Source: Planctomycetota bacterium (GTDB taxonomy: Bacteria; Planctomycetota; PLA2; JAEUHO01). From it: DNA of 64,000 bases. The translations under genes and the position numbers were made by a program. The notes beneath the pieces are model-generated. The model saw nothing but the letters and a program-made list of their open reading frames with translations. It did not search any database and was not told where the DNA came from. This document shows positions 9,124 through 32,751 of this stretch, one piece after another. The stretch spans positions 32,001 to 96,000 of the forward strand of contig CBDCWP010000012.1 in assembly GCA_965223505.1 (NCBI GenBank), read 5' to 3'. How positions within the stretch are numbered: position 1 is the first letter of the stretch; every line of letters starts with the position of its first letter.

Positions 9124-10509
9124 TTGCAGCGTTCGCACTGGCTCTTGCTGGGTCTGCTCGCGGCGGCCGCCGTCGGGATTCCTCTTGCGCTGACGTCGGG
9201 GCTCTTCGACGAGGACCCGTTCGACGGCGGCGTGCCGGACGACCCCGAGACGTCGGCCGGCCTCATCGGTCGCGGCGCTCCGGGGCAGCTCCCGCAGGAG
9301 CTCCGGGGGCTGGGGATCCCCGACGAGCTCGACGTCGGCGACCGCAACGCCGTTCTCGAGCTGGTGTTGGAGAGCCTCGAGCAGGATCCGGTCAACTGGG
9401 CGCGCGTGGCGCAGCTGGTGGGGCAGCTCGAGCCCCCGATCGAAGATCCACTGCGCGGCCGGTTGCTGGCCGAGGTCCGCGCGGGCAACCCGTCCGTGCG
9501 GCGGGTCTTCGAGCTGGTCCGTGACCCGACGTTCGCAGACGACCTGCTCGCGATGCTCAAGGGGCGCGACTTCGAGCCGGGGGCGCGAGAGGTGTTGCTG
9601 CAAGCGCTTGCGCGCCTGCCCGGCGCCGACGCGGACGCCATCGTCTCGGCCCTCGAGGTCTTTCTCGTCGGCGACACGACCCAGGATCAGGACGTGCTGC
9701 GCGCCATCGTCAAGCGCGGCAGCCCCGCGTCGGCCCGCGCGATTCTCGCGTACACGTTGCGCAGCCTGAACCCGATGCCGTTGCGCGTGGTGCTGGGCCA
9801 AGCCGTGAAGCACGCCGACGCCGAGGGGCGCGCCGAGATTCGCGCGGCGCTGGGCCAACCGCACGAGCGGCACGTCATGGTCACGCTCATCGACTGCATC
9901 GGCGCGCTGGGCGAGGACGATCTCGTGCGGCCGTTGCTTGCCCTCGATCGCGAGGGCAGCCATCCACGCGTTCGACGCGCCGTCTACGGCGCGTTGAGCC
10001 GCATCGGGACCGACGGCGCGGTCGAGCGCCTCATCGAGGCCGGCGCCGCGCAGGACGACCGCGGCGGGGACGCGCGCCGCGCGCTGGAGCGCATGTCCGC
10101 CGCCGACGACGCGGCGCGCAAACGCATGATGGACGCCTACGAGGAGATCGACGACCCCGTTCGACGCATCGGCATCCTGCGCGCGCTGACCGAGATGGAG
10201 CACGAGCCGGTCATCCCGCTGCTCGCCGAAGCGCTCGACAGCGAGGACCCCCGGCTTCGGCGTGCCGGCGTCCACGGGCTGCGCACCTTCGGCGAGCGGG
10301 CGCGGCCGCATGTTGGCAAGATGTTCGCCCTTTGGGGGGCCGCGGACAAGGGCACGCGCGCGGCCATCGTCGGCACGCTGGCGTCGGCGGGCGGCAGCGA
10401 GGCCCGCCGCGCACTGGCGTCGCTCCAGGATGCGCCCGAGCTCACCGATCGGATTCGGTCGCTCGTCGCGCAGGCACTGCGGTCGTTCGACGATGACAGC
10501 GGCAATTAG
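9124..10509 (+). CDS. HEAT-repeat protein with N-terminal membrane anchor or signal
   Basis: Hydrophobic N-terminus; helical repeats such as 'VRRAVYGALSRIG' and 'LDSEDPRLRRAGVHGL'. Confidence 0.75.
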   Translation: MQRSHWLLLGLLAAAAVGIPLALTSGLFDEDPFDGGVPDDPETSAGLIGRGAPGQLPQELRGLGIPDELDVGDRNAVLELVLESLEQDPVNWARVAQLVGQLEPPIEDPLRGRLLAEVRAGNPSVRRVFELVRDPTFADDLLAMLKGRDFEPGAREVLLQALARLPGADADAIVSALEVFLVGDTTQDQDVLRAIVKRGSPASARAILAYTLRSLNPMPLRVVLGQAVKHADAEGRAEIRAALGQPHERHVMVTLIDCIGALGEDDLVRPLLALDREGSHPRVRRAVYGALSRIGTDGAVERLIEAGAAQDDRGGDARRALERMSAADDAARKRMMDAYEEIDDPVRRIGILRALTEMEHEPVIPLLAEALDSEDPRLRRAGVHGLRTFGERARPHVGKMFALWGAADKGTRAAIVGTLASAGGSEARRALASLQDAPELTDRIRSLVAQALRSFDDDSGN

Positions 10510-10635: not shown

Positions 10636-12024
10636 GTGAATCGCGTACGCATAACTTGTGTCGCGGGCGCGCTGGCGCTTTGCATTCTGGTGATTCCAGC
10701 AATCACGCAAGCCAGCACCCGGACCGGGGGCGACCTCGGCAGCCGAATCGCCTTGCTCGAGCAGCAGACGGCAACGTTGAACACGTTGTTGGCCAACGTC
10801 ATGCGCTCCGGCAACGACCTGATCATCACGCAAGGGCTGGATGTGGAAGGCGCCGGCAACCTCGGCCCGAACGGACAGCACATCGCCTGCTTCGAGAACA
10901 CGAATGCGGGCGCCGCCGACGGCGTGGCGATCAAGGTCGACGGAGCGCCGCTATCGAGCGACAACAACTTCTTCACCTTCTACAACGACGACGACGTCGT
11001 CTGCGGGCGCATCGAGGGCTTCTCGCTGCTCGAGGGCGACCCGTTCTCGAACTTCCCGTCGGTTCCGAGCATCGGCATCAGCGACTTCTTCTCATTCTGT
11101 CCGAACTTCATCACGATCACCGGCGGATCCCTGCCGAGCATCAGCGGCGGCAGCCTGCCGAGCTTCGACTTCAGCATCTCGGATCCGGGCTTCAGTGGCG
11201 GATCGTGGCCGACGGTCAGCATCGGCAGCTTCCCGTCGATCGACTTCAAGTCGCCGATCCAGATCACCAACCCCCTCGACGCCGCCGGTGACGTCGTCAC
11301 CTGGCTCGCCGACGTGATCTGCTGGGCGTTCGAGAACGACCTACAGTCCCTCATCCAGACGGATCCCTTCGGGCTGGCGCTTGCGCCGCTCATTCTGACG
11401 GAGTCCACGCTCTGCAAGAACGGGACGACCGGCGAAGGCGGCGTCACGTACGGGTCGACCGGCGCCGACTACGCCGAGTGGCTCGAGAAGGCCGATCCGC
11501 GGGAGACCTTCCTTCCGGGCCAGGTCGTCGGCGTGCTCGCCGGGAAGATCAGCAAGAAGACGGACGGCGCGGACCAGATCATGGCCGTCTCGCAGATCCC
11601 CGCGGTCGTCGGCAACATCCCCCAGCCGCACGAGGCCGAGCGCTTCGAGAAGGTCGGCTTCATGGGACAGGTGGCCGTGCTGGTCCGCGGGAAGGTGACG
11701 GCCGGCGACTACATCATCCCGTCGGGACGCAACGACGGCATCGGCATCGCCCTGCCGGCAAAGGAGCTGCGCGCCAAGCATCTGACGCAGATTCTCGGGC
11801 GCGCCTGGTCCGACAGCACGTCGGAGAGTATTTCCTCCGTCACGGTCGCCATCGGCGTGAAGACGAACGCCGGCGTGGAGATCTGCGCGCGGCAGCAAGA
11901 GCGCATCGACCGGCTGCGTGAGGCCATCGAGGCTTTGCAAGCGCCGTCCCAGGCGCCCGCCGCTCCCGAGGAGAACGCCGCCCATCTCAGTGCGGGTGCT
12001 CGCAAGGAAGGGGGTGCGCGATGA
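10636..12024 (+). CDS. Secreted protein, paralogue 1, with C-terminal Peptidase_G2-like autocleaving chaperone domain
   Basis: AAAGGAGG then GTG at 10636; signal peptide ending TQA; short coiled coil; GADYAEWLEK and KVGFMGQV..GDYII motifs; terminal coiled coil. Confidence 0.8.
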   Translation: MNRVRITCVAGALALCILVIPAITQASTRTGGDLGSRIALLEQQTATLNTLLANVMRSGNDLIITQGLDVEGAGNLGPNGQHIACFENTNAGAADGVAIKVDGAPLSSDNNFFTFYNDDDVVCGRIEGFSLLEGDPFSNFPSVPSIGISDFFSFCPNFITITGGSLPSISGGSLPSFDFSISDPGFSGGSWPTVSIGSFPSIDFKSPIQITNPLDAAGDVVTWLADVICWAFENDLQSLIQTDPFGLALAPLILTESTLCKNGTTGEGGVTYGSTGADYAEWLEKADPRETFLPGQVVGVLAGKISKKTDGADQIMAVSQIPAVVGNIPQPHEAERFEKVGFMGQVAVLVRGKVTAGDYIIPSGRNDGIGIALPAKELRAKHLTQILGRAWSDSTSESISSVTVAIGVKTNAGVEICARQQERIDRLREAIEALQAPSQAPAAPEENAAHLSAGARKEGGAR

Positions 12025-13379
12025 AGGCCTCCAAGCTCCTGATCGCCGTCGCCTGCATCGCGCTCGTCGTGGCGGCGGTGCCCAAGAACTCGGATGCGCG
12101 CACGCGCACGGGGTCGGACCTGGGCTCTCGCGTCGCGGCGCTCGAGGCGACCATCGGCGCGCTCAACACGCTGCTCGAGAACGTCTCGCGGTCGGGCAAC
12201 GACCTGATCATCAACAGCGGTCTAACCGTCGAGGGCCCGGGCGACCTCGGTCCGACCGGTTCTCACATCGTTCGCTTCCGCAACACGGACGGCGGCGGCG
12301 AGGACGGCATCGCCGTCAAGATCAACCGTGCGCCGTGCAACTCGGGCAACAACTTCTGTACCTTCTACAACGACGACGACTACGTCTGCGGCCGCGTAGA
12401 GGGCTTCGCGCTGCTCGAGGGCGACCCCGCGACGAGCTTCCCGTCGGTGCCCAGCATCGGTCTCGACGACTTCTTCGTCTTCTGCCCGAATTTCATCAGC
12501 GTCACCGGCGGCAGGCTGCCCGGCCTGAGCGGTGGCCGGCTGCCGAGCTTCTCCTGTGACATCAGCATCGACCCGCCTTCGATCTCGTGCGACGTCGACT
12601 TCGGCGCGCTGCCGACGCTGGACCCGGGTGCGTTCCCGTCCATCGACTTCAAGGCGCCGCTCTCCATCACGAACCCGCTGGACGCCGGCGGCGACATCAT
12701 TCAGTGGCTTGCCGACGTGATTTGCTGGTGCTTCGAGAACGACCTCGAGTCGCTCATCCAGACCGATCCGTTCGGGCTGGCGCTTGCGCCGTTGATCTTG
12801 GCGGAGTCCACACTCTGCAAGAACGGCACGACCGGGGAAGGCGGCGTGACGTACGGTTCGACCGGCGCCGACTACGCCGAGTGGCTCGAGAAGCAGAACC
12901 CGTCCGACCGGTTCGTACCGGGGCAGGTCGTCGGTGTGCACCGCGGCAAGATCAGCAAGAAGACCGACGGCGCCGAGAAGGTCATGCCGATCTCGCTTGC
13001 GCCGATCGTCGTTGGCAACATGCCGCCCAAGGAGCGCGAGTCGGCTTATGCGAAGGTCGGCTTCATGGGGCAGGTGCCCGTCTACGTGCGCGGCAAGGTC
13101 CGCAAGGGCGACTACGTTGTCGCTTCGGGCAAGAACGACGGCATCGCCATCGGTGTGTCGCCCGAGGCGCTCGAGCTCGTCCACGTATCGCAGATCATCG
13201 GTCGCGCCTGGTCCGCGTCCGACGTCGACGGCGTCTCGGCCGTCAACGTCGCGATCGGGTTGAAGACCAGCGCGTGCGTCGACATCTGCAAACGACAGGA
13301 AGCCGAGATCGACGAGCTGGAGGAGGCGCTCGATGCGCTGCTTGATGCGCGCCATGGCGCGAAGGGAGGTGCGCGATGA
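12021..13379 (+). CDS. Secreted protein, paralogue 2, same architecture
   Basis: ATGA overlap; signal peptide ending SDA; collinear with paralogue 1 including GGVTYGSTGADYAEWLEK. Confidence 0.8.
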   Translation: MKASKLLIAVACIALVVAAVPKNSDARTRTGSDLGSRVAALEATIGALNTLLENVSRSGNDLIINSGLTVEGPGDLGPTGSHIVRFRNTDGGGEDGIAVKINRAPCNSGNNFCTFYNDDDYVCGRVEGFALLEGDPATSFPSVPSIGLDDFFVFCPNFISVTGGRLPGLSGGRLPSFSCDISIDPPSISCDVDFGALPTLDPGAFPSIDFKAPLSITNPLDAGGDIIQWLADVICWCFENDLESLIQTDPFGLALAPLILAESTLCKNGTTGEGGVTYGSTGADYAEWLEKQNPSDRFVPGQVVGVHRGKISKKTDGAEKVMPISLAPIVVGNMPPKERESAYAKVGFMGQVPVYVRGKVRKGDYVVASGKNDGIAIGVSPEALELVHVSQIIGRAWSASDVDGVSAVNVAIGLKTSACVDICKRQEAEIDELEEALDALLDARHGAKGGAR

Positions 13380-14650
13380 AGCTCCGCGTCAAGATCGGGA
13401 TCGGCATCTTCGCGCTGGCACTTCTGGTGCTGGCCATGCCGTCGACGTCGCACGCCCGCACCCGTACCGGCACCGATCTCGGCACCCGCGTGGCGCGGCT
13501 CGAGGAACAGACGGCGCGGATCAACGCGCTGTTGGAGAACCTCTCCATCCAGGGCAACAACCTGCGCTTGGCCAGCGGCCTCAACGTCAACGGCGCCGGC
13601 GCGGTCGGGCCGAACTCGGCGCACATCGTGTGCTTCGAGAACACCGACGGCGGCAGCGAGGACGGCGTGGCGATCAAGATCGATCGCGCTCCGTGCAGCT
13701 CCGACAACAACTTCCTGACCTTCTACAACGACGACGACTACGTCTGTGGCCGCGTCGAGGGCTTCTCGCTGCTCGACGGCGATCCGGCGTCGACGTTCCC
13801 GTCGTTGCCGAGCATTGGTCTGGACGACTTCTTTTCGTTCTGCCCGAACTTCATCTCGATCACCGGGGGCCAGCTCCCGAGCTTCGATCCGGGGAGCTTC
13901 CCCTCGTCGCTGCCGAGCCTCGATCCAGGAGCATTCCCGTCGATCGACTTCAAGTCGCCGCTCACGATCACGAACCCCTTGGATGCGGGCGGGGACATCG
14001 TGAGCTGGCTTGCGGACGTGATCTGCTGGGCGTTCGAGAACGACTTCCAGTCGGTTATTCAGGGCGACCCGTTCGGGATCGCGCTCGCCGCTCTGATCCT
14101 CGTCGAGGCGACGCTCTGTAAGAACGGCCCGTTCGGCGGCGTCACCTACGGATCGACGGGCGCCGACTACGCCGAGTGGTTGGAGAAGCTCCATCCGTCC
14201 GAGCGGTTCCTGCCCGGGCAGATCGTCGGCGTGCACGGCGGCAAGATCAGCAAGAAGACCGAAGGCGCGGAGCAGGTCATGGCGATCTCGCTGGCGCCCG
14301 CGGTCATCGGGAACGTTCCGGCGAAGCAGGACGAGGCGCTCTACGAGCGCGTGGGCTTCATGGGGCAGGTCCCGGTGTACGTCCAAGGCAAGGTCAAGGC
14401 GGGTGACTACATCATTCCGTCCGGCCGCGGCGACGGCATCGGTGTCGCGGTCTCGCCCGATGAGCTCGACCTGAAGGACGTGGCGCACATCCTGGGCCGT
14501 GCGTGGTCCGAGAGCAGCAGCGACGGCGTCGCCTCGGTCAACGTCGGCATCGGGCTCGACACGAACGAGCTGACCGGCGTGTTCGAGAAGAACGCCGATC
14601 GACTGGATCGACTCGAGGAGAAGCTCCAGCTTCTTCGCGAGCGGAAGTAA
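13376..14650 (+). CDS. Secreted protein, paralogue 3, same architecture
   Basis: ATGA overlap; signal peptide ending SHA; same conserved blocks. Confidence 0.8.
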   Translation: MKLRVKIGIGIFALALLVLAMPSTSHARTRTGTDLGTRVARLEEQTARINALLENLSIQGNNLRLASGLNVNGAGAVGPNSAHIVCFENTDGGSEDGVAIKIDRAPCSSDNNFLTFYNDDDYVCGRVEGFSLLDGDPASTFPSLPSIGLDDFFSFCPNFISITGGQLPSFDPGSFPSSLPSLDPGAFPSIDFKSPLTITNPLDAGGDIVSWLADVICWAFENDFQSVIQGDPFGIALAALILVEATLCKNGPFGGVTYGSTGADYAEWLEKLHPSERFLPGQIVGVHGGKISKKTEGAEQVMAISLAPAVIGNVPAKQDEALYERVGFMGQVPVYVQGKVKAGDYIIPSGRGDGIGVAVSPDELDLKDVAHILGRAWSESSSDGVASVNVGIGLDTNELTGVFEKNADRLDRLEEKLQLLRERK

Positions 14651-14766
14651 ACGTGGGGGCGGCGTGGGCCGCTCGCACGAGCTGAAGGCCGATTGCGGCT
14701 CGCCGACCAACGGCGGGCCGCTTTCGTGTCCAAACAGTGCGAGCGTGCTACGGGAGCGAGACAAGC

Positions 14767-16932
14767 ATGGACGTCGAGTCGTCTGAGACCTCGAAGGAGC
14801 AAGCGCCGTCCACCGACGCGCTGTTCACTCCGATCGATGCCGCGAGCCTCGGTTTCTTCCGCTTCGGCTTCGGCGTCATCATGCTCGTGGAGATGCTCCA
14901 CTACATCCTCGACGGATTGGTGCAGAGCCTGTACGTCGACGCGACGTTTCACTTCAAGTTCTACGGGTTCGGCTGGGTCGAGGCGCTGCCCGAGGCCGGG
15001 ATGTTCGCCCTGTTCTGGTCGCTGGTGGTTCTGGCGCTTCTGATCGCGGTCGGCCTCTTCTACCGCGTATCGATCTTCCTGTTCGGCCTCGGATTCACAT
15101 ACGTCTTCCTCTTGGACAAGACGTACTACCTCAACCACTTCTATCTCATCAGCCTGCTCTGCCTGATCCTCGTGTTCGTCCCCGCCGACCGGGCGTTTTC
15201 GCTCCGGCGGCTGCGCAAGCCCGATACGCCGCGCACGCTGCCGGTCTGGTGCCTCTGGTTGCTGCGATTCCAGCTCGGGCTGGTGTACTTCCTCGCGGGT
15301 GCCGCGAAGCTCAACGCCGACTGGTTGCGTGGCGAGCCGATGCGCTCGATGGCGTACGCCGGCGAGTCGATCCTCTCGCCGGGCTTTCCCGCTTGGGCGC
15401 AGAACGACGTCGTCGTGTACATCGGCGCGTACGGCGGACTGCTGTTCGACCTGTTCGTCACGCCGTTCCTCCTGTGGCGCAAGACACGGATGATCGCCTT
15501 CTTGTTCGCTTGTGCGTTCCACTTGGGCAACTTCTTCGTCTTCCGCCTGCCGATCGGCATCTTCCCCTGGTACATGATCGTGGCGACGACGCTGTTCTTC
15601 GACCCGGACTGGCCACGCCAGGTAATCGGGTGGTGGCGCCGCCGGCGAGGCCTGACGGGGCCGGAACCCGTCGTCACCGATCCGACGCCCGTCGTCCCCT
15701 CGCCGCTTCGACGCAAGCTCATCCTCGGTCTCGGCGGTCTTTACATCGTCGTTCAGATCCTGCTCCCGCTGCGGCACAACCTGTATCCCGGCAATCCCTC
15801 CTGGACCAACGAGGGCAACGACTTCGCATGGCGCATGATGATCTTCGCGAAGGACCCCGAGGCGCGCTTCTATGCGACCGACCCCGACACAGGAAAGGTC
15901 TGGCAGATCGACGCCGAGGAGTACCTGACGCCGTATCAGGCACTGATCATGCCGCTGCGACCGGACATGATCCTGCAGTTCTGCCACCACGCGGCGAACG
16001 ATCTACGGGCCAAGGGACATGAACGCGTCGAGATTCGCGGCTACGTGAAGGCGACATTGAACGGCCGGCGGCCGCAGCTGCTCATCAACCCCTTCGTCGA
16101 TCTTGCGGCGGAGCCGCGATCGCTTGCGCACAAGCCGTGGATTCAGCCGTTGACCGTTCCGTTCGAGGAACGGCAGTTCGTGAGCCCCGATCCGAAGATG
16201 CGTTCGGGGTGGGCCGCATTCGAGCCCGGTGCCTGGATCCTGGCAGACGAGCGTCTGTCGCTGGCCGGCAAGACCGCCAGCTTCCGGCGCTTGCGCACCC
16301 TCCAGCTTCGTGACCAAAAGCGCTACATCCGTACCGAGAACATCTCGAAGATCCCGCTCGACGCCGGCGGCGACATCGTTCTTCCTGTCACGCCGGGTGC
16401 GTTGCCGGAGGATCTCGACATGCGCGTCCAGACCGTGGACCACGAGACGCTCGAGATCGACGGCGTCAAGGTCGCGTGCAAGGTGACCGCGTACACGATG
16501 TCGAACAGCGACGACCCCTGGCAGGCGCGATTGGTCCTGTGGACGACGGACACGTTTCGGGTCCCCTATCGCGAGGTGCCGGACGTTCAGCCGAGGCTGT
16601 TGAGGCGCATGGCCATGATGCCGAACGTCGTGAAGTTGAAGTACGTCGTGATGGACCAGATGAGCCGCCGCGAGGGCATCTACGAGGTTCAGGTCGAGGC
16701 GTTGCAGGAGTCGTTTTCGCTCGGCGAACGCACGCTCGAATGCGTACGCGAGTCGGCACGCATCGCGCGACGCGGCCAGGGCGGCGAGGTCCTGGCGAAG
16801 ATGGAGCGCTGGCTGTCGACCGAGGTTCCCAACCACATCGTCAAGGCGACCGTGAACACGGCGCAGCCCAAGCGCACCACCGAGTGGGGCTTCTCGATCG
16901 TGAAGTTCAGCGGCCGCGCACAGAACCCCTGA
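14767..16932 (+). CDS. HTTM-domain protein, vitamin-K-dependent gamma-carboxylase homologue, with C-terminal extension
   Basis: Motifs PIDAASLGFFRFGFG, FHFKFYGF, YLNHFYL, AGAAKLNADW, IGIFPW, WTNEG..FAWRMM, PDMILQF and LNGR; multiple TM segments. Confidence 0.9.
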   Translation: MDVESSETSKEQAPSTDALFTPIDAASLGFFRFGFGVIMLVEMLHYILDGLVQSLYVDATFHFKFYGFGWVEALPEAGMFALFWSLVVLALLIAVGLFYRVSIFLFGLGFTYVFLLDKTYYLNHFYLISLLCLILVFVPADRAFSLRRLRKPDTPRTLPVWCLWLLRFQLGLVYFLAGAAKLNADWLRGEPMRSMAYAGESILSPGFPAWAQNDVVVYIGAYGGLLFDLFVTPFLLWRKTRMIAFLFACAFHLGNFFVFRLPIGIFPWYMIVATTLFFDPDWPRQVIGWWRRRRGLTGPEPVVTDPTPVVPSPLRRKLILGLGGLYIVVQILLPLRHNLYPGNPSWTNEGNDFAWRMMIFAKDPEARFYATDPDTGKVWQIDAEEYLTPYQALIMPLRPDMILQFCHHAANDLRAKGHERVEIRGYVKATLNGRRPQLLINPFVDLAAEPRSLAHKPWIQPLTVPFEERQFVSPDPKMRSGWAAFEPGAWILADERLSLAGKTASFRRLRTLQLRDQKRYIRTENISKIPLDAGGDIVLPVTPGALPEDLDMRVQTVDHETLEIDGVKVACKVTAYTMSNSDDPWQARLVLWTTDTFRVPYREVPDVQPRLLRRMAMMPNVVKLKYVVMDQMSRREGIYEVQVEALQESFSLGERTLECVRESARIARRGQGGEVLAKMERWLSTEVPNHIVKATVNTAQPKRTTEWGFSIVKFSGRAQNP

Positions 16933-16957
16933 TCCGATCGTGTACGGTACGCCCGTC

Positions 16958-17914
16958 ATGAAGCGTGCCACCGTCCTCATCCTCGGTCTGCTCACCGCGT
17001 GCGGCGAGGAGCCCGCTCCCAAGCCGTTGCCGGACGACCCCTATGTGCTCGTGCTCGGCACCGCGCAGGACGGCGGCTTCCCCCAGATCGGCGCGGACCA
17101 CGCACTCGCGCGCGCCGCGCGCAGAGACACGACGCTTCGACGGTTCGTCGCATCGCTGCTGATCGTCGATCCGCGCAGCGGCAAGCGTTGGTTGATCGAC
17201 GCGACGCCGGACCTGCGCGAACAGGTCGAGCTGGCGCGCGGTCATCCGCCGAACCGCAAGCTGCCCGGCCCCCGGCCGCCCTTGTTCGAGGGCATCTTCC
17301 TCACGCACGCGCACATGGGGCACTACACGGGCTTGATCCACCTGGGCCGCGAGGCGTACGGGGCGAAGGACATGCCGGTGATCGCGTCCGACGAGATGGC
17401 GACCTTCCTCGAGAACAACGGTCCCTGGAGCCTTCTGGTCGAGCTGAAGAACATCCAGCTGCGCACGCTTCGCGCCGGCGAGGCGGTGCCGCTGGCCGAC
17501 GACCTGAGCGTGTTGGCGATCGAGGTGCCGCATCGTTCGGAGTACACGGGCACGTTCGGGTTCGTGATCAAGGGACCGTCGAAGTCGTTGCTCTACATTC
17601 CGGACATCGACAAGTGGGAGAAGTGGACGCGCGAGATCGAGGACGAGATCGCCGCCGTCGACTACGCGCTACTGGACGGGACGTTCTTCGAGAACGGAGA
17701 GATCCCCGGGCGCGACATGTCGTTGATTCCGCATCCGTTCATCGAAGAGTCGTTGCGGCGGTTCGCGCCGCTGCCGGCGACGGAGCGGTCGAAGGTGTTC
17801 TTCACGCACCTGAACCACACGAACCCCGCGTCGGATCCGAACGGCGCTGCGCAGCGCAAGGTGAAGGCCGCGGGGTGCGCCGTGGCGGCCGACGGGCAGG
17901 TGTTCGGGCTGTGA
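16958..17914 (+). CDS. PqqB-like metallo-beta-lactamase-fold hydrolase, lipoprotein
   Basis: Lipobox LLTA-C; motifs VLGTAQDGGFPQ, IDATPD, THAHMGH, VPHR, LDGTF and HLNHTNP. Confidence 0.85.
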   Translation: MKRATVLILGLLTACGEEPAPKPLPDDPYVLVLGTAQDGGFPQIGADHALARAARRDTTLRRFVASLLIVDPRSGKRWLIDATPDLREQVELARGHPPNRKLPGPRPPLFEGIFLTHAHMGHYTGLIHLGREAYGAKDMPVIASDEMATFLENNGPWSLLVELKNIQLRTLRAGEAVPLADDLSVLAIEVPHRSEYTGTFGFVIKGPSKSLLYIPDIDKWEKWTREIEDEIAAVDYALLDGTFFENGEIPGRDMSLIPHPFIEESLRRFAPLPATERSKVFFTHLNHTNPASDPNGAAQRKVKAAGCAVAADGQVFGL

Positions 17915-17932: not shown

Positions 17933-18445
17933 CTATCGCGCCATGCCGGCCAGCGCCGAAGGCAGATCGTGATGCCGGCGCCACGACGCCAGCTGCCCCA
18001 GGTGCATGTTCGCGTGGGCCACCAGCAGGAAGACGAGGTAGTCCGCCATCGTCGGCAGCGCGCCGTCGAAGCGCCATTCGACCGGCGCCTCGAGCGCCTC
18101 CGCCGACAAACCGCGAATCGCCTCGGCCAGGCGCGCCTGCTGGCGCTCCATCTCCTTCAGCAGCGCGGCTGCCGTCGGGTACTTGGCGGGGTCCGGATCG
18201 GGCACGCGTGGATCGCCGGGACCGTTGCGCTCGAAGAGGTCGCGCCAGCCGTCGGGCAGGTCGCGTTCGAGGCCCAGCTCGGCGGCGACGAACCCGAGGC
18301 CCGTGACGATGTGGCCGAGCGTCCAGGCCGGGTGGTTCTCCAACCCCTTCGGGCCGGGCCGGCCCCACAGGGTGTCGGGAACGTCCGCGACCAGCGCGCG
18401 CGCGTACGCGAGGTTCCAGTCCATCTGGTGCAGCACGTGTTCCAT
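17933..18445 (-). CDS. DinB family protein
   Basis: NHPAWTLGHI and HANMHLGQL metal-binding His pattern; start overlaps the desaturase stop. Confidence 0.85.
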   Translation of the reverse strand: MEHVLHQMDWNLAYARALVADVPDTLWGRPGPKGLENHPAWTLGHIVTGLGFVAAELGLERDLPDGWRDLFERNGPGDPRVPDPDPAKYPTAAALLKEMERQQARLAEAIRGLSAEALEAPVEWRFDGALPTMADYLVFLLVAHANMHLGQLASWRRHHDLPSALAGMAR

Positions 18446-19518
18446 CACGCGGGCTTCGTGGCCGCCGCCCGATCCGACTGTCGCAGCCTCGGCAGCGGCA
18501 CCATCCGCTCCTGCTCTTCGTCCCAGAGCGCGAGACGCGCGAAGGGGATGGTCTCCCACAGGGTGTATCCGCGCACGCCCAGCCGGTCGTTCACCTTCCT
18601 GTTGGCGTCACCCAGCCGGTAGCAGGGGATCTTGGCATCGAGGTGATGCACGTGGTGGTAGCCGATGCCGAGCCACAACCACTCGCCGAGCGGACGGCTG
18701 AGGCGCAGGTACGAGCTGCCGTGCACCGCGCCTTCGAAGTAGCTCCAGCCTTCGTCACGCGACGTCTTCCAGACGGCGTCTTCGAAGTGGTGCTGCACGA
18801 AGAAGAGCCAGCCGGCGATGGACGCGGCGAAGATGCAGATGGGGAGCTGTACCTGGGCGAGCGGGCCGATGCCGCCGACGGCGAATCCGGCTGCGACGTG
18901 CATCAAGACGATGACGACGGTGGTCAGATGCACGTCGAGGGTCGACTCGCTCGGCACCTTGCGCCACGCGGCCGGGAGCCGGTGCCCGATGGAAAAGTGG
19001 ACGAACGGCAGCAGCCCGACCATGACGGGCGGCGAGCGGAAGATGCGGTACGCGATGCGCTTCGGCCTCGACCAGCTCTCGAACTCCTTGACGGTGTGGA
19101 GCTTGAGGTAGCCCTCGTCGCTGCGTTCGATGTCGCCGACGGCGGTGTGGTGGGCGATGTGGCTCTTGCGCCAGCGGTCGTAGGGCGTGAAGAGGATCAG
19201 GCCGAAGACGATGCCCCACCAGCGGTTGGCGCGCGGCGTTCGGAAGAGCGCGTGGTGCACGGTGTCGTGGAAGAGCACGAAGATGCGCGACATGATCAGG
19301 CCGCAGGCGAGACCGGTGGCGGCGGCGGCGGGAATGCTGACGGGGATCAGCTTGAAGGTCGCGATCCAGAGCGCGACGTAGAGCGCGACGCTGACGGAGG
19401 CTTCGATCCAGCTGCGGGCCGTGTCGAGCGTGCGGAACCGGCGCAGGTCCTCGAGGACCCCACGAAGCTCGGCCTTGCTCGCCGGCACGGCTGGTTCCTG
19501 TTGCGCTACGGCCTCCAT
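18445..19518 (-). CDS. Membrane fatty acid desaturase
   Basis: His boxes HDTVH, HIAHH, QH and HHVHH; TM segments. Confidence 0.9.
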   Translation of the reverse strand: MEAVAQQEPAVPASKAELRGVLEDLRRFRTLDTARSWIEASVSVALYVALWIATFKLIPVSIPAAAATGLACGLIMSRIFVLFHDTVHHALFRTPRANRWWGIVFGLILFTPYDRWRKSHIAHHTAVGDIERSDEGYLKLHTVKEFESWSRPKRIAYRIFRSPPVMVGLLPFVHFSIGHRLPAAWRKVPSESTLDVHLTTVVIVLMHVAAGFAVGGIGPLAQVQLPICIFAASIAGWLFFVQHHFEDAVWKTSRDEGWSYFEGAVHGSSYLRLSRPLGEWLWLGIGYHHVHHLDAKIPCYRLGDANRKVNDRLGVRGYTLWETIPFARLALWDEEQERMVPLPRLRQSDRAAATKPA

Positions 19519-31677: not shown

Positions 31678-32751
31678 CTAGGCGAAGCGCGTCGAGTAGA
31701 TCGGCGGGAGGTTGTTCGAGAGCGTGTCCCAGCTCTCGCCGCCGTTCTCCGACACATAGAGGTTGCCCGATGTCGTGCCGAACACGAGCGTGTCGCCGCT
31801 CGGCGCCACGTCGAACGCGTGACGGAACGGAAAGTCCCACGCGTTCTCCTGCGGCAGTCCCTCGGTCTGCCGCACCCAGCTCTCGCCGCCGTCGTCCGTG
31901 CGCATGACGACGAGCTTGCCGCCGACCGTCATGCGGTGTTGGTCGCTCTGCATGGGAACGAGCCACGCGGTCTCCGGCTTTGCCGGATGGACCGCGACGG
32001 GAAAGCCGAAGTAGACGAGCGGCTTTTGGGAGAGATCCGCCCACTTGGCGCCGCCATCGGTCGTGCGGAACACGCCGCAATGGTTGGCCTGCCACAGCAC
32101 GTCCGGGTTCGACGGCGCCATCGTGACGAAGTGCGGGTCGTGTCCGAAGTCGGCATCCGCGTCCTCGGGCTCGAACACCTTCGAGACGCCGTTGTTGCAG
32201 TACGCCCACGTCGCGCCGCCGTCCCTCGTCACGGTCGTGCCCGCGCAGGAAACCCCGATCACCATGTGCTCGGCGTCGCGCGGGTCGATGCAAATGGAGT
32301 GAATGCCGGCCTGGTCTCGGCCGCCGCCCGTCCACTCGTCGCGAGCGCACATGTCCCAGAGCGGCTGGTTCAGCGCCCACGACGTCCCGTCGTCCGTCGA
32401 TTGAAAGAGCCCGCCGGGCTCGGTGCCGATCCAGAACGTATCGGGCGCTTCGGCGTGGCCGGGCTGCAGCACCCAGTAGTACTTGGCCGTCTTGCCGGTG
32501 GCCTTCGGGTACTTCGGCGCCTCGACCTCGTCGTAGTCGCCGCCGTCGTTCTTGGAGCGCGCCAGCTTCACGCCCCAGTGGCCGTGATCGAGCGACGCCC
32601 AGATCGAGCCGTTGCGCGCGTCGCGCACGGCGTACGGCACCGGTAGTCCCTTCAATGCCGGATGCGACAGCGCCCAACCGTTCGCCCGCTTGCGCGCTTC
32701 GATGAGTCCTTTGCGCGTACCGATCAGTACGCGATCGTCCTGCGTTCCCAC
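31678..32751 (-). CDS. BNR/Asp-box repeat beta-propeller protein
   Basis: Repeated Asp boxes: STDDGTSW, TRDGGATW, TTDGGAKW, TDDGGESW, SENGGESW. Confidence 0.88.
   Translation of the reverse strand: MGTQDDRVLIGTRKGLIEARKRANGWALSHPALKGLPVPYAVRDARNGSIWASLDHGHWGVKLARSKNDGGDYDEVEAPKYPKATGKTAKYYWVLQPGHAEAPDTFWIGTEPGGLFQSTDDGTSWALNQPLWDMCARDEWTGGGRDQAGIHSICIDPRDAEHMVIGVSCAGTTVTRDGGATWAYCNNGVSKVFEPEDADADFGHDPHFVTMAPSNPDVLWQANHCGVFRTTDGGAKWADLSQKPLVYFGFPVAVHPAKPETAWLVPMQSDQHRMTVGGKLVVMRTDDGGESWVRQTEGLPQENAWDFPFRHAFDVAPSGDTLVFGTTSGNLYVSENGGESWDTLSNNLPPIYSTRFA

Follow-up and report, generated by a model that had tools for sequence, protein, structure and literature searches.

We analysed a 64,000-nucleotide window of DNA from a Planctomycetota bacterium (positions 32,001 to 96,000 of contig CBDCWP010000012.1, assembly GCA_965223505.1) and found that three tandem genes for secreted, fibre-like proteins (10636–14650) stand directly before a full-length gene for an HTTM membrane enzyme of vitamin-K-dependent gamma-carboxylase (VKGC) type (14767–16932), all on the plus strand. 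We tentatively explain this block as a short cassette for surface fibres that also provides an accessory enzyme, acting in the periplasm, to modify them, a reading to which we would give somewhat less than an even chance. The gene order had been described in an earlier sequence-only reading of this DNA and was confirmed by open reading frames, gene overlaps and Pfam matches; the enzyme motifs YLNHFYL, AGAAKLNADW, WTNEG..FAWRMM and PDMILQF named in that reading were also all present, with the Lys codon exactly at 15307–15309. The fibre or tailspike nature of the triplet and its Peptidase_G2 chaperone domain had not been recognised. What the individual parts are can be given with high confidence from sequence comparison and structure models. 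A functional link between them can reasonably be inferred from an adjacency that is rare, non-random and repeated twice elsewhere. The link is supported because the topology fits and the catalytic core is intact, and it is weakened because the fibres carry no substrate signature and their family generally does without the enzyme.

Fibre-like paralogues and their predicted chaperone domain

The three paralogues encode proteins of 462, 452 and 424 residues (10636–12024, 12021–13379 and 13376–14650, respectively) with pairwise identities of 62–65%. The first gene begins with a GTG codon behind the sequence AAGGAGG, and both junctions within the triplet are 4-bp ATGA overlaps of start and stop codons. 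When read by eye, the N-termini look like Sec-type signal peptides. In paralogue 1, the mature protein has STRTGGDLGSRIALLE as its conserved N-terminus, together with a short coiled coil, and its fibre core is characterized by NNFxTFYN..GRIEGF, Pro/Ser/Gly-rich GSLPS repeats and two conserved Cys residues. This conserved core, ~200 residues long (NNFxTFYN, GRVEGF, Pro/Ser/Gly repeats and the two Cys), precedes a GADYAEW motif and represents a small family, with 101 cluster representatives among 1.84 billion. The N-terminal parts of its relatives vary and include collagen repeats, pentapeptide repeats, beta-helix parts or a YadA-like head, as expected of modular trimeric fibres. No hit at 0.9 or above was obtained for the core in the protein atlas. 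A scan of viral contigs for the fibre family gave four partial matches, which covered the chaperone domain only, and did not find the full family.

All three proteins matched Pfam PF11962 (Peptidase_G2, intramolecular chaperone autoproteolytic cleavage domain) above the cut-off of 25, at 30.2, 25.3 and 30.5 bits for paralogues 1, 2 and 3, with a match that spans only profile positions 37–101 of 228. The AlphaFold 2 (AF2) model of paralogue 3 was confident only at residues ~265–424. The top Foldseek matches of this model were entries of phi29 gp12, namely the tailspike precursor 3suc (E 1.3e-4) and the C-terminal fragment 3gqh (E 1.5e-4), the match to 3gqh_A having a target TM-score of 0.53. 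In addition, the family profile had a weak match (E 0.012) in Dpo31, a Klebsiella-phage tailspike, whose chaperone domain has GSDYAEYFE opposite GADYAEW. The Asp and Glu of GADYAEW, which we take to be the catalytic pair of gp12, were invariant in 96 of 96 members of the fibre family. Sequence and model together indicate that GADYAEW marks the start of a C-terminal intramolecular chaperone of the phi29 gp12 (Peptidase_G2) type, ~160 residues in length, and that the triplet consists of trimeric, exported fibre or tailspike-like proteins. The motif, with the predicted self-cleavage and catalytic D-x-x-E site, is found at 11461–11481, 12864–12884 and 14159–14179, and the corresponding chaperone domains extend over 11467–12021, 12870–13376 and 14165–14647 (all on the plus strand). 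This domain would help the fibre trimer fold and would then cut itself off at G-A/D-Y-A-E, between Ala and Asp.

The proteins resemble phi29 gp12, the pre-neck appendage of that phage, and other Peptidase_G2 tailspikes (3SUC, 3GQH; Dpo31 domain D4, 28NB) in their C-terminal PF11962 domain with the same predicted fold, in the D-Y-A-E at the start of the chaperone domain and in the trimeric-fibre features upstream of it. Unlike these tailspikes, they are encoded by chromosomal bacterial genes, with putative Sec signal peptides and no prophage, and their ~200-residue core forms a small family of its own. No published description of a chromosomal, Sec-exported fibre family with a phage-type chaperone was found in the literature searched.

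The acidic motifs that the sequence-only reading had seen in the triplet were only in part what they seemed. YNDDD, FEND and GADYAEW do occur in all three paralogues, but they do not amount to an acidic signature: YNDDD is peculiar to the window triplet, its relatives carrying YNGxG, YRGN or FNGDG instead, and GADYAEW is the predicted chaperone site.

Seven proteins of the window genome share an N-terminus composed of a signal peptide, the sequence (A)RTRTG[TS]DLG[SA]RVAALE and a short coiled coil. These are the three fibres (10636–10760, 12021–12150 and 13376–13500) and four small unlinked proteins of ~160–280 residues (loci L006 on C41, L007 on C10, L008 on C21 and L009 on C30), one of which has YadA-like SGGxxNxASG repeats. 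The shared segment has the look of a module by which several surface fibres are docked or anchored in the same way.

The HTTM/VKGC enzyme

The enzyme gene encodes 721 residues from an ATG at 14767, and GGGAG lies 10 nt before it; if a GTG at 14737 were the start instead, the protein would have 731 residues. Pfam identified an HTTM domain (~14824–15612; E 3.3e-78, 263.3 bits) and a VKGC_lumenal_dom (~15712–16152; E 5.9e-40, 137.1 bits), each against a cut-off of 27.7 bits. Similarity to human GGCX was detected by phmmer at E 1e-42, and the AF2 model of the enzyme (pLDDT 90.5, pTM 0.88) superimposed on human GGCX structures with a Z-score of 33, a root-mean-square deviation of 3.0–3.4 Å over 446–454 residues and 28% identity. 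For 9wfc_A, the values were Z 33.2, 3.4 Å and 454 residues. The Lys encoded at 15307–15309 within AGAAKLNADW aligns with human Lys218 and was invariant in 46 of 46 aligned homologues. In the phmmer alignment, the enzyme was identical to GGCX at N159, H160, K218, W223, D263, F286, N290, F299 and M401. In the excerpted text of PMC12647623, Lys218 is the catalytic base, acting with Trp223 and Asp263, and Asn159, His160, Phe299 and Met401 form the Glu/CO2 site. The window enzyme is accordingly read, from sequence and model, as a complete bacterial VKGC with the catalytic core and the GGCX fold kept. It is like human GGCX in having both HTTM and VKGC lumenal domains, the same fold (Z 33), the nine core residues and a predicted active site on the exoplasmic side, and the candidate substrates in the window are exported proteins from adjacent genes. 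The stretch equivalent to human residues 374–418 is also present and aligned in the enzyme.

The enzyme also differs from its human counterpart. Tyr395, Arg406 and Arg436, which according to the same excerpt of PMC12647623 position the Leu-Glu dipeptide in human GGCX, are replaced in the phmmer alignment by Asn, Ala and Ile, a difference that counts against modification of the fibres when that reading is weighed below. Human His440 lies opposite Arg, and the consensus of bacterial HTTM proteins has His at the position of Tyr395. The second difference concerns the C-terminal part, where clamp B and the C-terminal domain of human GGCX appear to be replaced by an unrelated beta-rich domain, for which no Pfam family was found. 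In the confident AF2 model this extra, predicted periplasmic domain covers residues 485–715 (~16219–16911) and follows the lumenal domain; superpositions on GGCX end at model residue 586–652 at most. In sequence order it takes the place of the second propeptide clamp of human GGCX. Ordinary bacterial HTTM-VKGC homologues of ~470 residues are without such an extension, which was common to only four other database proteins (P0078–P0081). A metagenome scan with the enzyme alignment likewise found only ordinary ~470-residue HTTM-VKGC loci and no second locus of the extended clade. Matches of the domain to porins (Z 9–10) were taken to reflect a shared up-and-down beta sheet and not relatedness.

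The module of which this domain is built was also observed alone in Planctomycetota, in secreted proteins of 200–244 residues, and in tandem, with two or more copies, in exported proteins of 683 and 1082 residues (L185:2827–6072, minus strand; L183:8206–10254, plus; L186:9742–10341, minus; L014:1414–2148, plus). Its presence in other exported proteins, together with the loss of Tyr395, would suit an enzyme that aids the biogenesis of the fibres without carboxylating them, either by a processing role of the SdpAB-SdpC kind or as a membrane dock that uses the extra beta domain. SdpB of Bacillus subtilis is presumably an HTTM protein, in agreement with the B. subtilis control match in our HTTM search; it is a short protein, has no VKGC lumenal domain and is partnered by SdpA. 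SdpABC (and YitPOM) resemble the window in that an HTTM-family membrane protein is clustered with an exported protein that needs it (PMC6818787), whereas the product of SdpABC is a 42-residue toxin and not a fibre. We consider a role in biogenesis without carboxylation clearly unlikely. The catalytic residues that deprotonate the quinol and handle CO2 are all conserved, a pattern that speaks for chemistry; the fibre-linked enzyme of a Saprospiraceae genome, described below, is without the extra domain; and the fibres already have a predicted processing domain of their own.

Pairing of fibre and HTTM genes in other genomes

Using one genome per species, we detected 151 relatives of the fibres and examined the best 78 of their loci with 1.24 Mb of flanks, where the presence of HTTM genes was scored by both tblastn and profile. 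An HTTM gene was found directly downstream of a fibre gene and on the same strand at two of these 78 other loci, which belong to two phyla. One is a Planctomycetota metagenome-assembled genome (MAG; locus L041) with a single fibre gene whose stop overlaps the HTTM start by 4 bp; its HTTM protein of 729 residues is 52% identical to the window enzyme and shares the C-terminal extension with it. In the other, a Saprospiraceae MAG (L017), an HTTM gene lies 301 nt behind one fibre gene and is followed by three to four more, which places it inside an array with four to five such genes in total. This HTTM protein (477 residues, 32% identical to the window enzyme) is the only one of its genome, and in the window genome, too, the fibre-linked HTTM gene is the only one. 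If HTTM genes occur at one per 7.7–20 Mb, which is a rough estimate, the Poisson probability of at least two anywhere in the 1.24 Mb of flanks is roughly 0.002–0.012, and for HTTM genes immediately beside a fibre gene in the same orientation the chance expectation is lower still.

In a quick tree, the extended clade formed a supported group inside ordinary HTTMs, and the Saprospiraceae HTTM fell on a long branch outside all 45 window-like HTTMs. This distance suggests that the pairing probably arose more than once, by independent recruitment. On the fibre side, the closest relative of the window core among the 1.84 billion cluster representatives was the HTTM-adjacent Saprospiraceae fibre, and patristic distances were smallest between that protein and the window fibres. 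The HTTM-linked fibres formed no supported clade in the fibre tree (branch support 0.14).

A number of observations weigh against the modification of fibres by the enzyme. First, the pairing is rare. HTTM genes were missing from the flanks of 76 of the best 78 fibre loci and from all of 15 further Bacteroidota fibre loci (12 genomes), and no fibre gene was found in 80 ordinary HTTM-VKGC loci from metagenomes, which shared no neighbour in more than six of the 80. Among 151 genomes of the order that includes the Saprospiraceae MAG, 49 had HTTM and eight had the fibre; both occurred in three and were adjacent in one. Genomes with fibres (3 of 8) therefore had HTTM no more often than genomes that were without fibres (46 of 143), and five of the eight fibre-bearing genomes gave no HTTM hit. 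Ten further fibre-bearing genomes had HTTM elsewhere (six) or gave none (four), although these are MAGs and absence is unproven. The fibre family was absent from 40 relatives of the window genome, two of which had a good HTTM orthologue, and in a sample of 401 genomes from the phylum of the window, the two further genomes with a fibre gene lacked HTTM as well.

Second, the linked fibres are not marked as substrates. No alignment column separated the eight HTTM-linked fibres from 88 unlinked ones, no propeptide-like element marked the linked proteins, and the DDD run of the window fibres was not common to the other linked fibres. A Gla domain was absent from the three window fibres, in which Pfam found only PF11962 at E up to 0.01, so that, unlike the substrates of GGCX, these candidates have neither a Gla domain nor a recognisable propeptide. 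None of the fibre relatives inspected, 76 of near-equal length and 55 longer, showed a fusion of HTTM and fibre. The missing Tyr395, Arg406 and Arg436 belong here as well.

Third, the 116-nt gap between the third fibre gene and the enzyme gene contains a terminator-like hairpin. The sequence-only reading had seen no clear terminator, which does not hold: the structured region (14652–14731, plus strand) has two strong hairpins, at 14652–14679 and 14695–14721, and the latter has an 11-bp stem with 10 G-C pairs followed by the tail TTTCGTGT. Folding of the gap gave a minimum free energy of -62.3 kcal/mol (z -3.18), and only one of 200 shuffled sequences was as stable. The structured gap is possibly a leaky terminator or attenuator, or an element that stabilises the mRNA. 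The terminator-like hairpin could be a leaky terminator by which the enzyme is expressed less than the structural proteins, or it could be a true operon boundary.

Alternatively, the fibre and enzyme genes may be unrelated neighbours, separate units in variable, surface-related parts of a few genomes, and the enzyme may have a different target in the periplasm or membrane. Such an explanation fits the absence of the link at 76 of 78 and 15 of 15 fibre loci and at 80 of 80 ordinary HTTM loci, the lack of genome-level co-occurrence, ordinary HTTM-VKGC genes without a fixed partner, the hairpin in the gap and the unmarked fibres. It has more difficulty with two further cases, from two phyla, of same-strand genes side by side (overlapping by 4 bp in one, placed inside a fibre array in the other), with the low, if rough, chance estimate, with the mutual distance of the HTTM lineages involved and with the fact that the fibre-linked gene is the sole HTTM gene in both the window and the Saprospiraceae genomes. 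We regard chance proximity as a serious possibility, nearly as likely as the modification of fibres. The proposal that the triplet proteins are the cognate substrates of the enzyme therefore stands in part: the pairing recurs at two of 78 loci and the GGCX core is kept, but the pairing is rare and dispensable and has no substrate signature. A link between GADYAEW proteins and HTTM genes was seen in the gene-neighbourhood survey at these two other loci and not at the remaining 76, at the 15 further fibre loci or at the 80 HTTM loci.

Other genes were observed more often beside the fibres. A small protein of ~230 residues with a C-terminal sorting domain of the type IX secretion system (T9SS) was a usual neighbour, on the same strand in 35 of 78 loci (e.g., L017:13040–13717), and may act as adaptor or surface anchor for fibres that lose their own C-terminus by cleavage. 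Two-component regulators were further usual neighbours. In 11 loci (L047:11017–12126 and ten of Planctomycetota/Phycisphaerae), an unannotated protein of ~370 residues was encoded directly downstream of the fibre with a median gap of 69 nt, the slot taken by the HTTM gene in the window. Besides, in three of the 80 ordinary HTTM loci a giant secreted protein with immunoglobulin-like (Ig) and beta-propeller repeats adjoined HTTM on the same strand with a median gap of 84 nt (e.g., L134:2606–9865), so that here, too, a VKGC homologue has a large exported protein as its neighbour.

Genome setting, proposed mechanism and significance

The surrounding assembly comprises 5.15 Mb in 44 contigs, and the window stretch has 70% G+C. 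On the plus strand, the gene order is a HEAT-repeat gene (9124–10509), the three fibre paralogues, the gap, the HTTM gene and a gene for a protein of the metallo-beta-lactamase (MBL) fold (16940–17914; Pfam Lactamase_B_2, E 2.7e-25). Beyond the MBL gene, a DinB-like gene and then a fatty-acid desaturase gene (FA_desaturase, 18445–19518) are on the minus strand. The MBL protein has a lipoprotein-type N-terminus (LLTAC) and is only distantly PqqB-like (TIGR02108, 121.6 bits vs a cut-off of 245). Its gene starts 8 nt after the end of the HTTM gene and is probably co-transcribed with it. It is, however, a neighbour specific to the window and not a conserved part of the fibre–HTTM pairing, because tblastn matched it in none of the 78 fibre loci and in none of the 80 HTTM loci. 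The HEAT-repeat protein also had no match in the 78 fibre loci, and neither the HEAT, DinB and desaturase proteins nor a methyltransferase had any in the 80 HTTM loci. HEAT-repeat proteins were considered as a shared flank, being encoded upstream here and downstream in L041, and were rejected, as the two are not detectably related (BLASTP E 0.19). A dip in GC content at 10.6–17 kb (0.635–0.668 vs ~0.70 in the surroundings) was likewise rejected as a sign of recent transfer: third-position GC was 0.86–0.90, like that of the neighbours, and only first-position GC was lower, so that the dip reflects amino-acid composition. No prophage genes were found among the neighbouring genes scanned. A VKOR homologue is present on another contig of the window genome.

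The desaturase gene, 1.5 kb downstream of the HTTM gene, raises the question of whether the enzyme acts on lipids or small molecules, as a vitamin-K epoxidase or as a small-molecule carboxylase like MloH of malonomycin biosynthesis. In the portion of PMC13486548 consulted, viral VKGC-like epoxidases are linked with desaturases, and MloH, as cited in the excerpt of PMC12647623, carboxylates a non-protein substrate. Here, the desaturase is encoded on the opposite strand beyond two other genes and had no match in the 80 HTTM loci, the 78 fibre loci being outside that search. The window enzyme also keeps the region of human residues 374–418, which the giant-virus enzymes, truncated and with a fused or adjacent desaturase, have lost according to the same portion of PMC13486548. 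MloH and the HTTM proteins of linaridin clusters (e.g., CrdG) are alike in being bacterial HTTM/VKGC homologues to which a modifying role has been assigned or for which one is suspected (excerpts of PMC12647623 and PMC9927463), but theirs is a role in clusters for nonribosomal peptide synthetases (NRPS) and polyketide synthases (PKS), or for ribosomally synthesised and post-translationally modified peptides, with small molecules or short peptides as substrates. No domain of such clusters, NRPS and PKS included, was found among the neighbouring genes scanned (HEAT-repeat, fibres, MBL, DinB and desaturase). A lipid or small-molecule target is very unlikely in our estimate.

Returning to an accessory enzyme that modifies the fibres, we can outline how it might work. 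The topology would fit, as the candidate substrates are exported and the active site of the modelled enzyme is predicted to face the periplasm. A membrane enzyme of nine helices would use reduced menaquinone and O2 to generate a strong base through the equivalent of Lys218, and it would act before trimerisation, on fibre chains that emerge from the Sec channel and have yet to fold. Docking of the substrate would fall to the extra C-terminal beta domain that this enzyme clade carries. Carboxylation of Glu or Asp would be the most likely chemistry, and other base-driven chemistry is possible; that the fibres are in fact carboxylated we consider rather doubtful. The modification would be an extra that a few lineages gained independently of one another and that the fibre family does not require. 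In its fullest form the proposal is one of prokaryotic protein carboxylation, in which a VKGC with menaquinol, O2 and CO2 would carboxylate Glu or Asp of secreted trimeric fibres in the periplasm to give Ca2+- or mineral-binding residues, with independent recruitment in Planctomycetota and Bacteroidota and the beta domain in the role of a propeptide clamp. This version, too, is improbable as a whole.

Hardly any bacterial targets of the VKGC family are known, and in the literature searched MloH was the only bacterial homologue whose activity was found cited in print, on a small molecule. Because the pairing recurs in two other bacteria, the fibres are a plausible, unproven protein substrate for a bacterial VKGC, and a defined, cloneable pair of enzyme and candidate substrate makes it testable whether protein carboxylation exists in bacteria. 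If it does occur here, it would provide the fibres with Ca2+- or mineral-binding residues. The triplet itself defines a small family of chromosomal, apparently Sec-exported fibres with a predicted self-cleaving chaperone of phage type, a finding of relevance to the construction of surface fibres by bacteria and to the exchange of genes between phage and cell.

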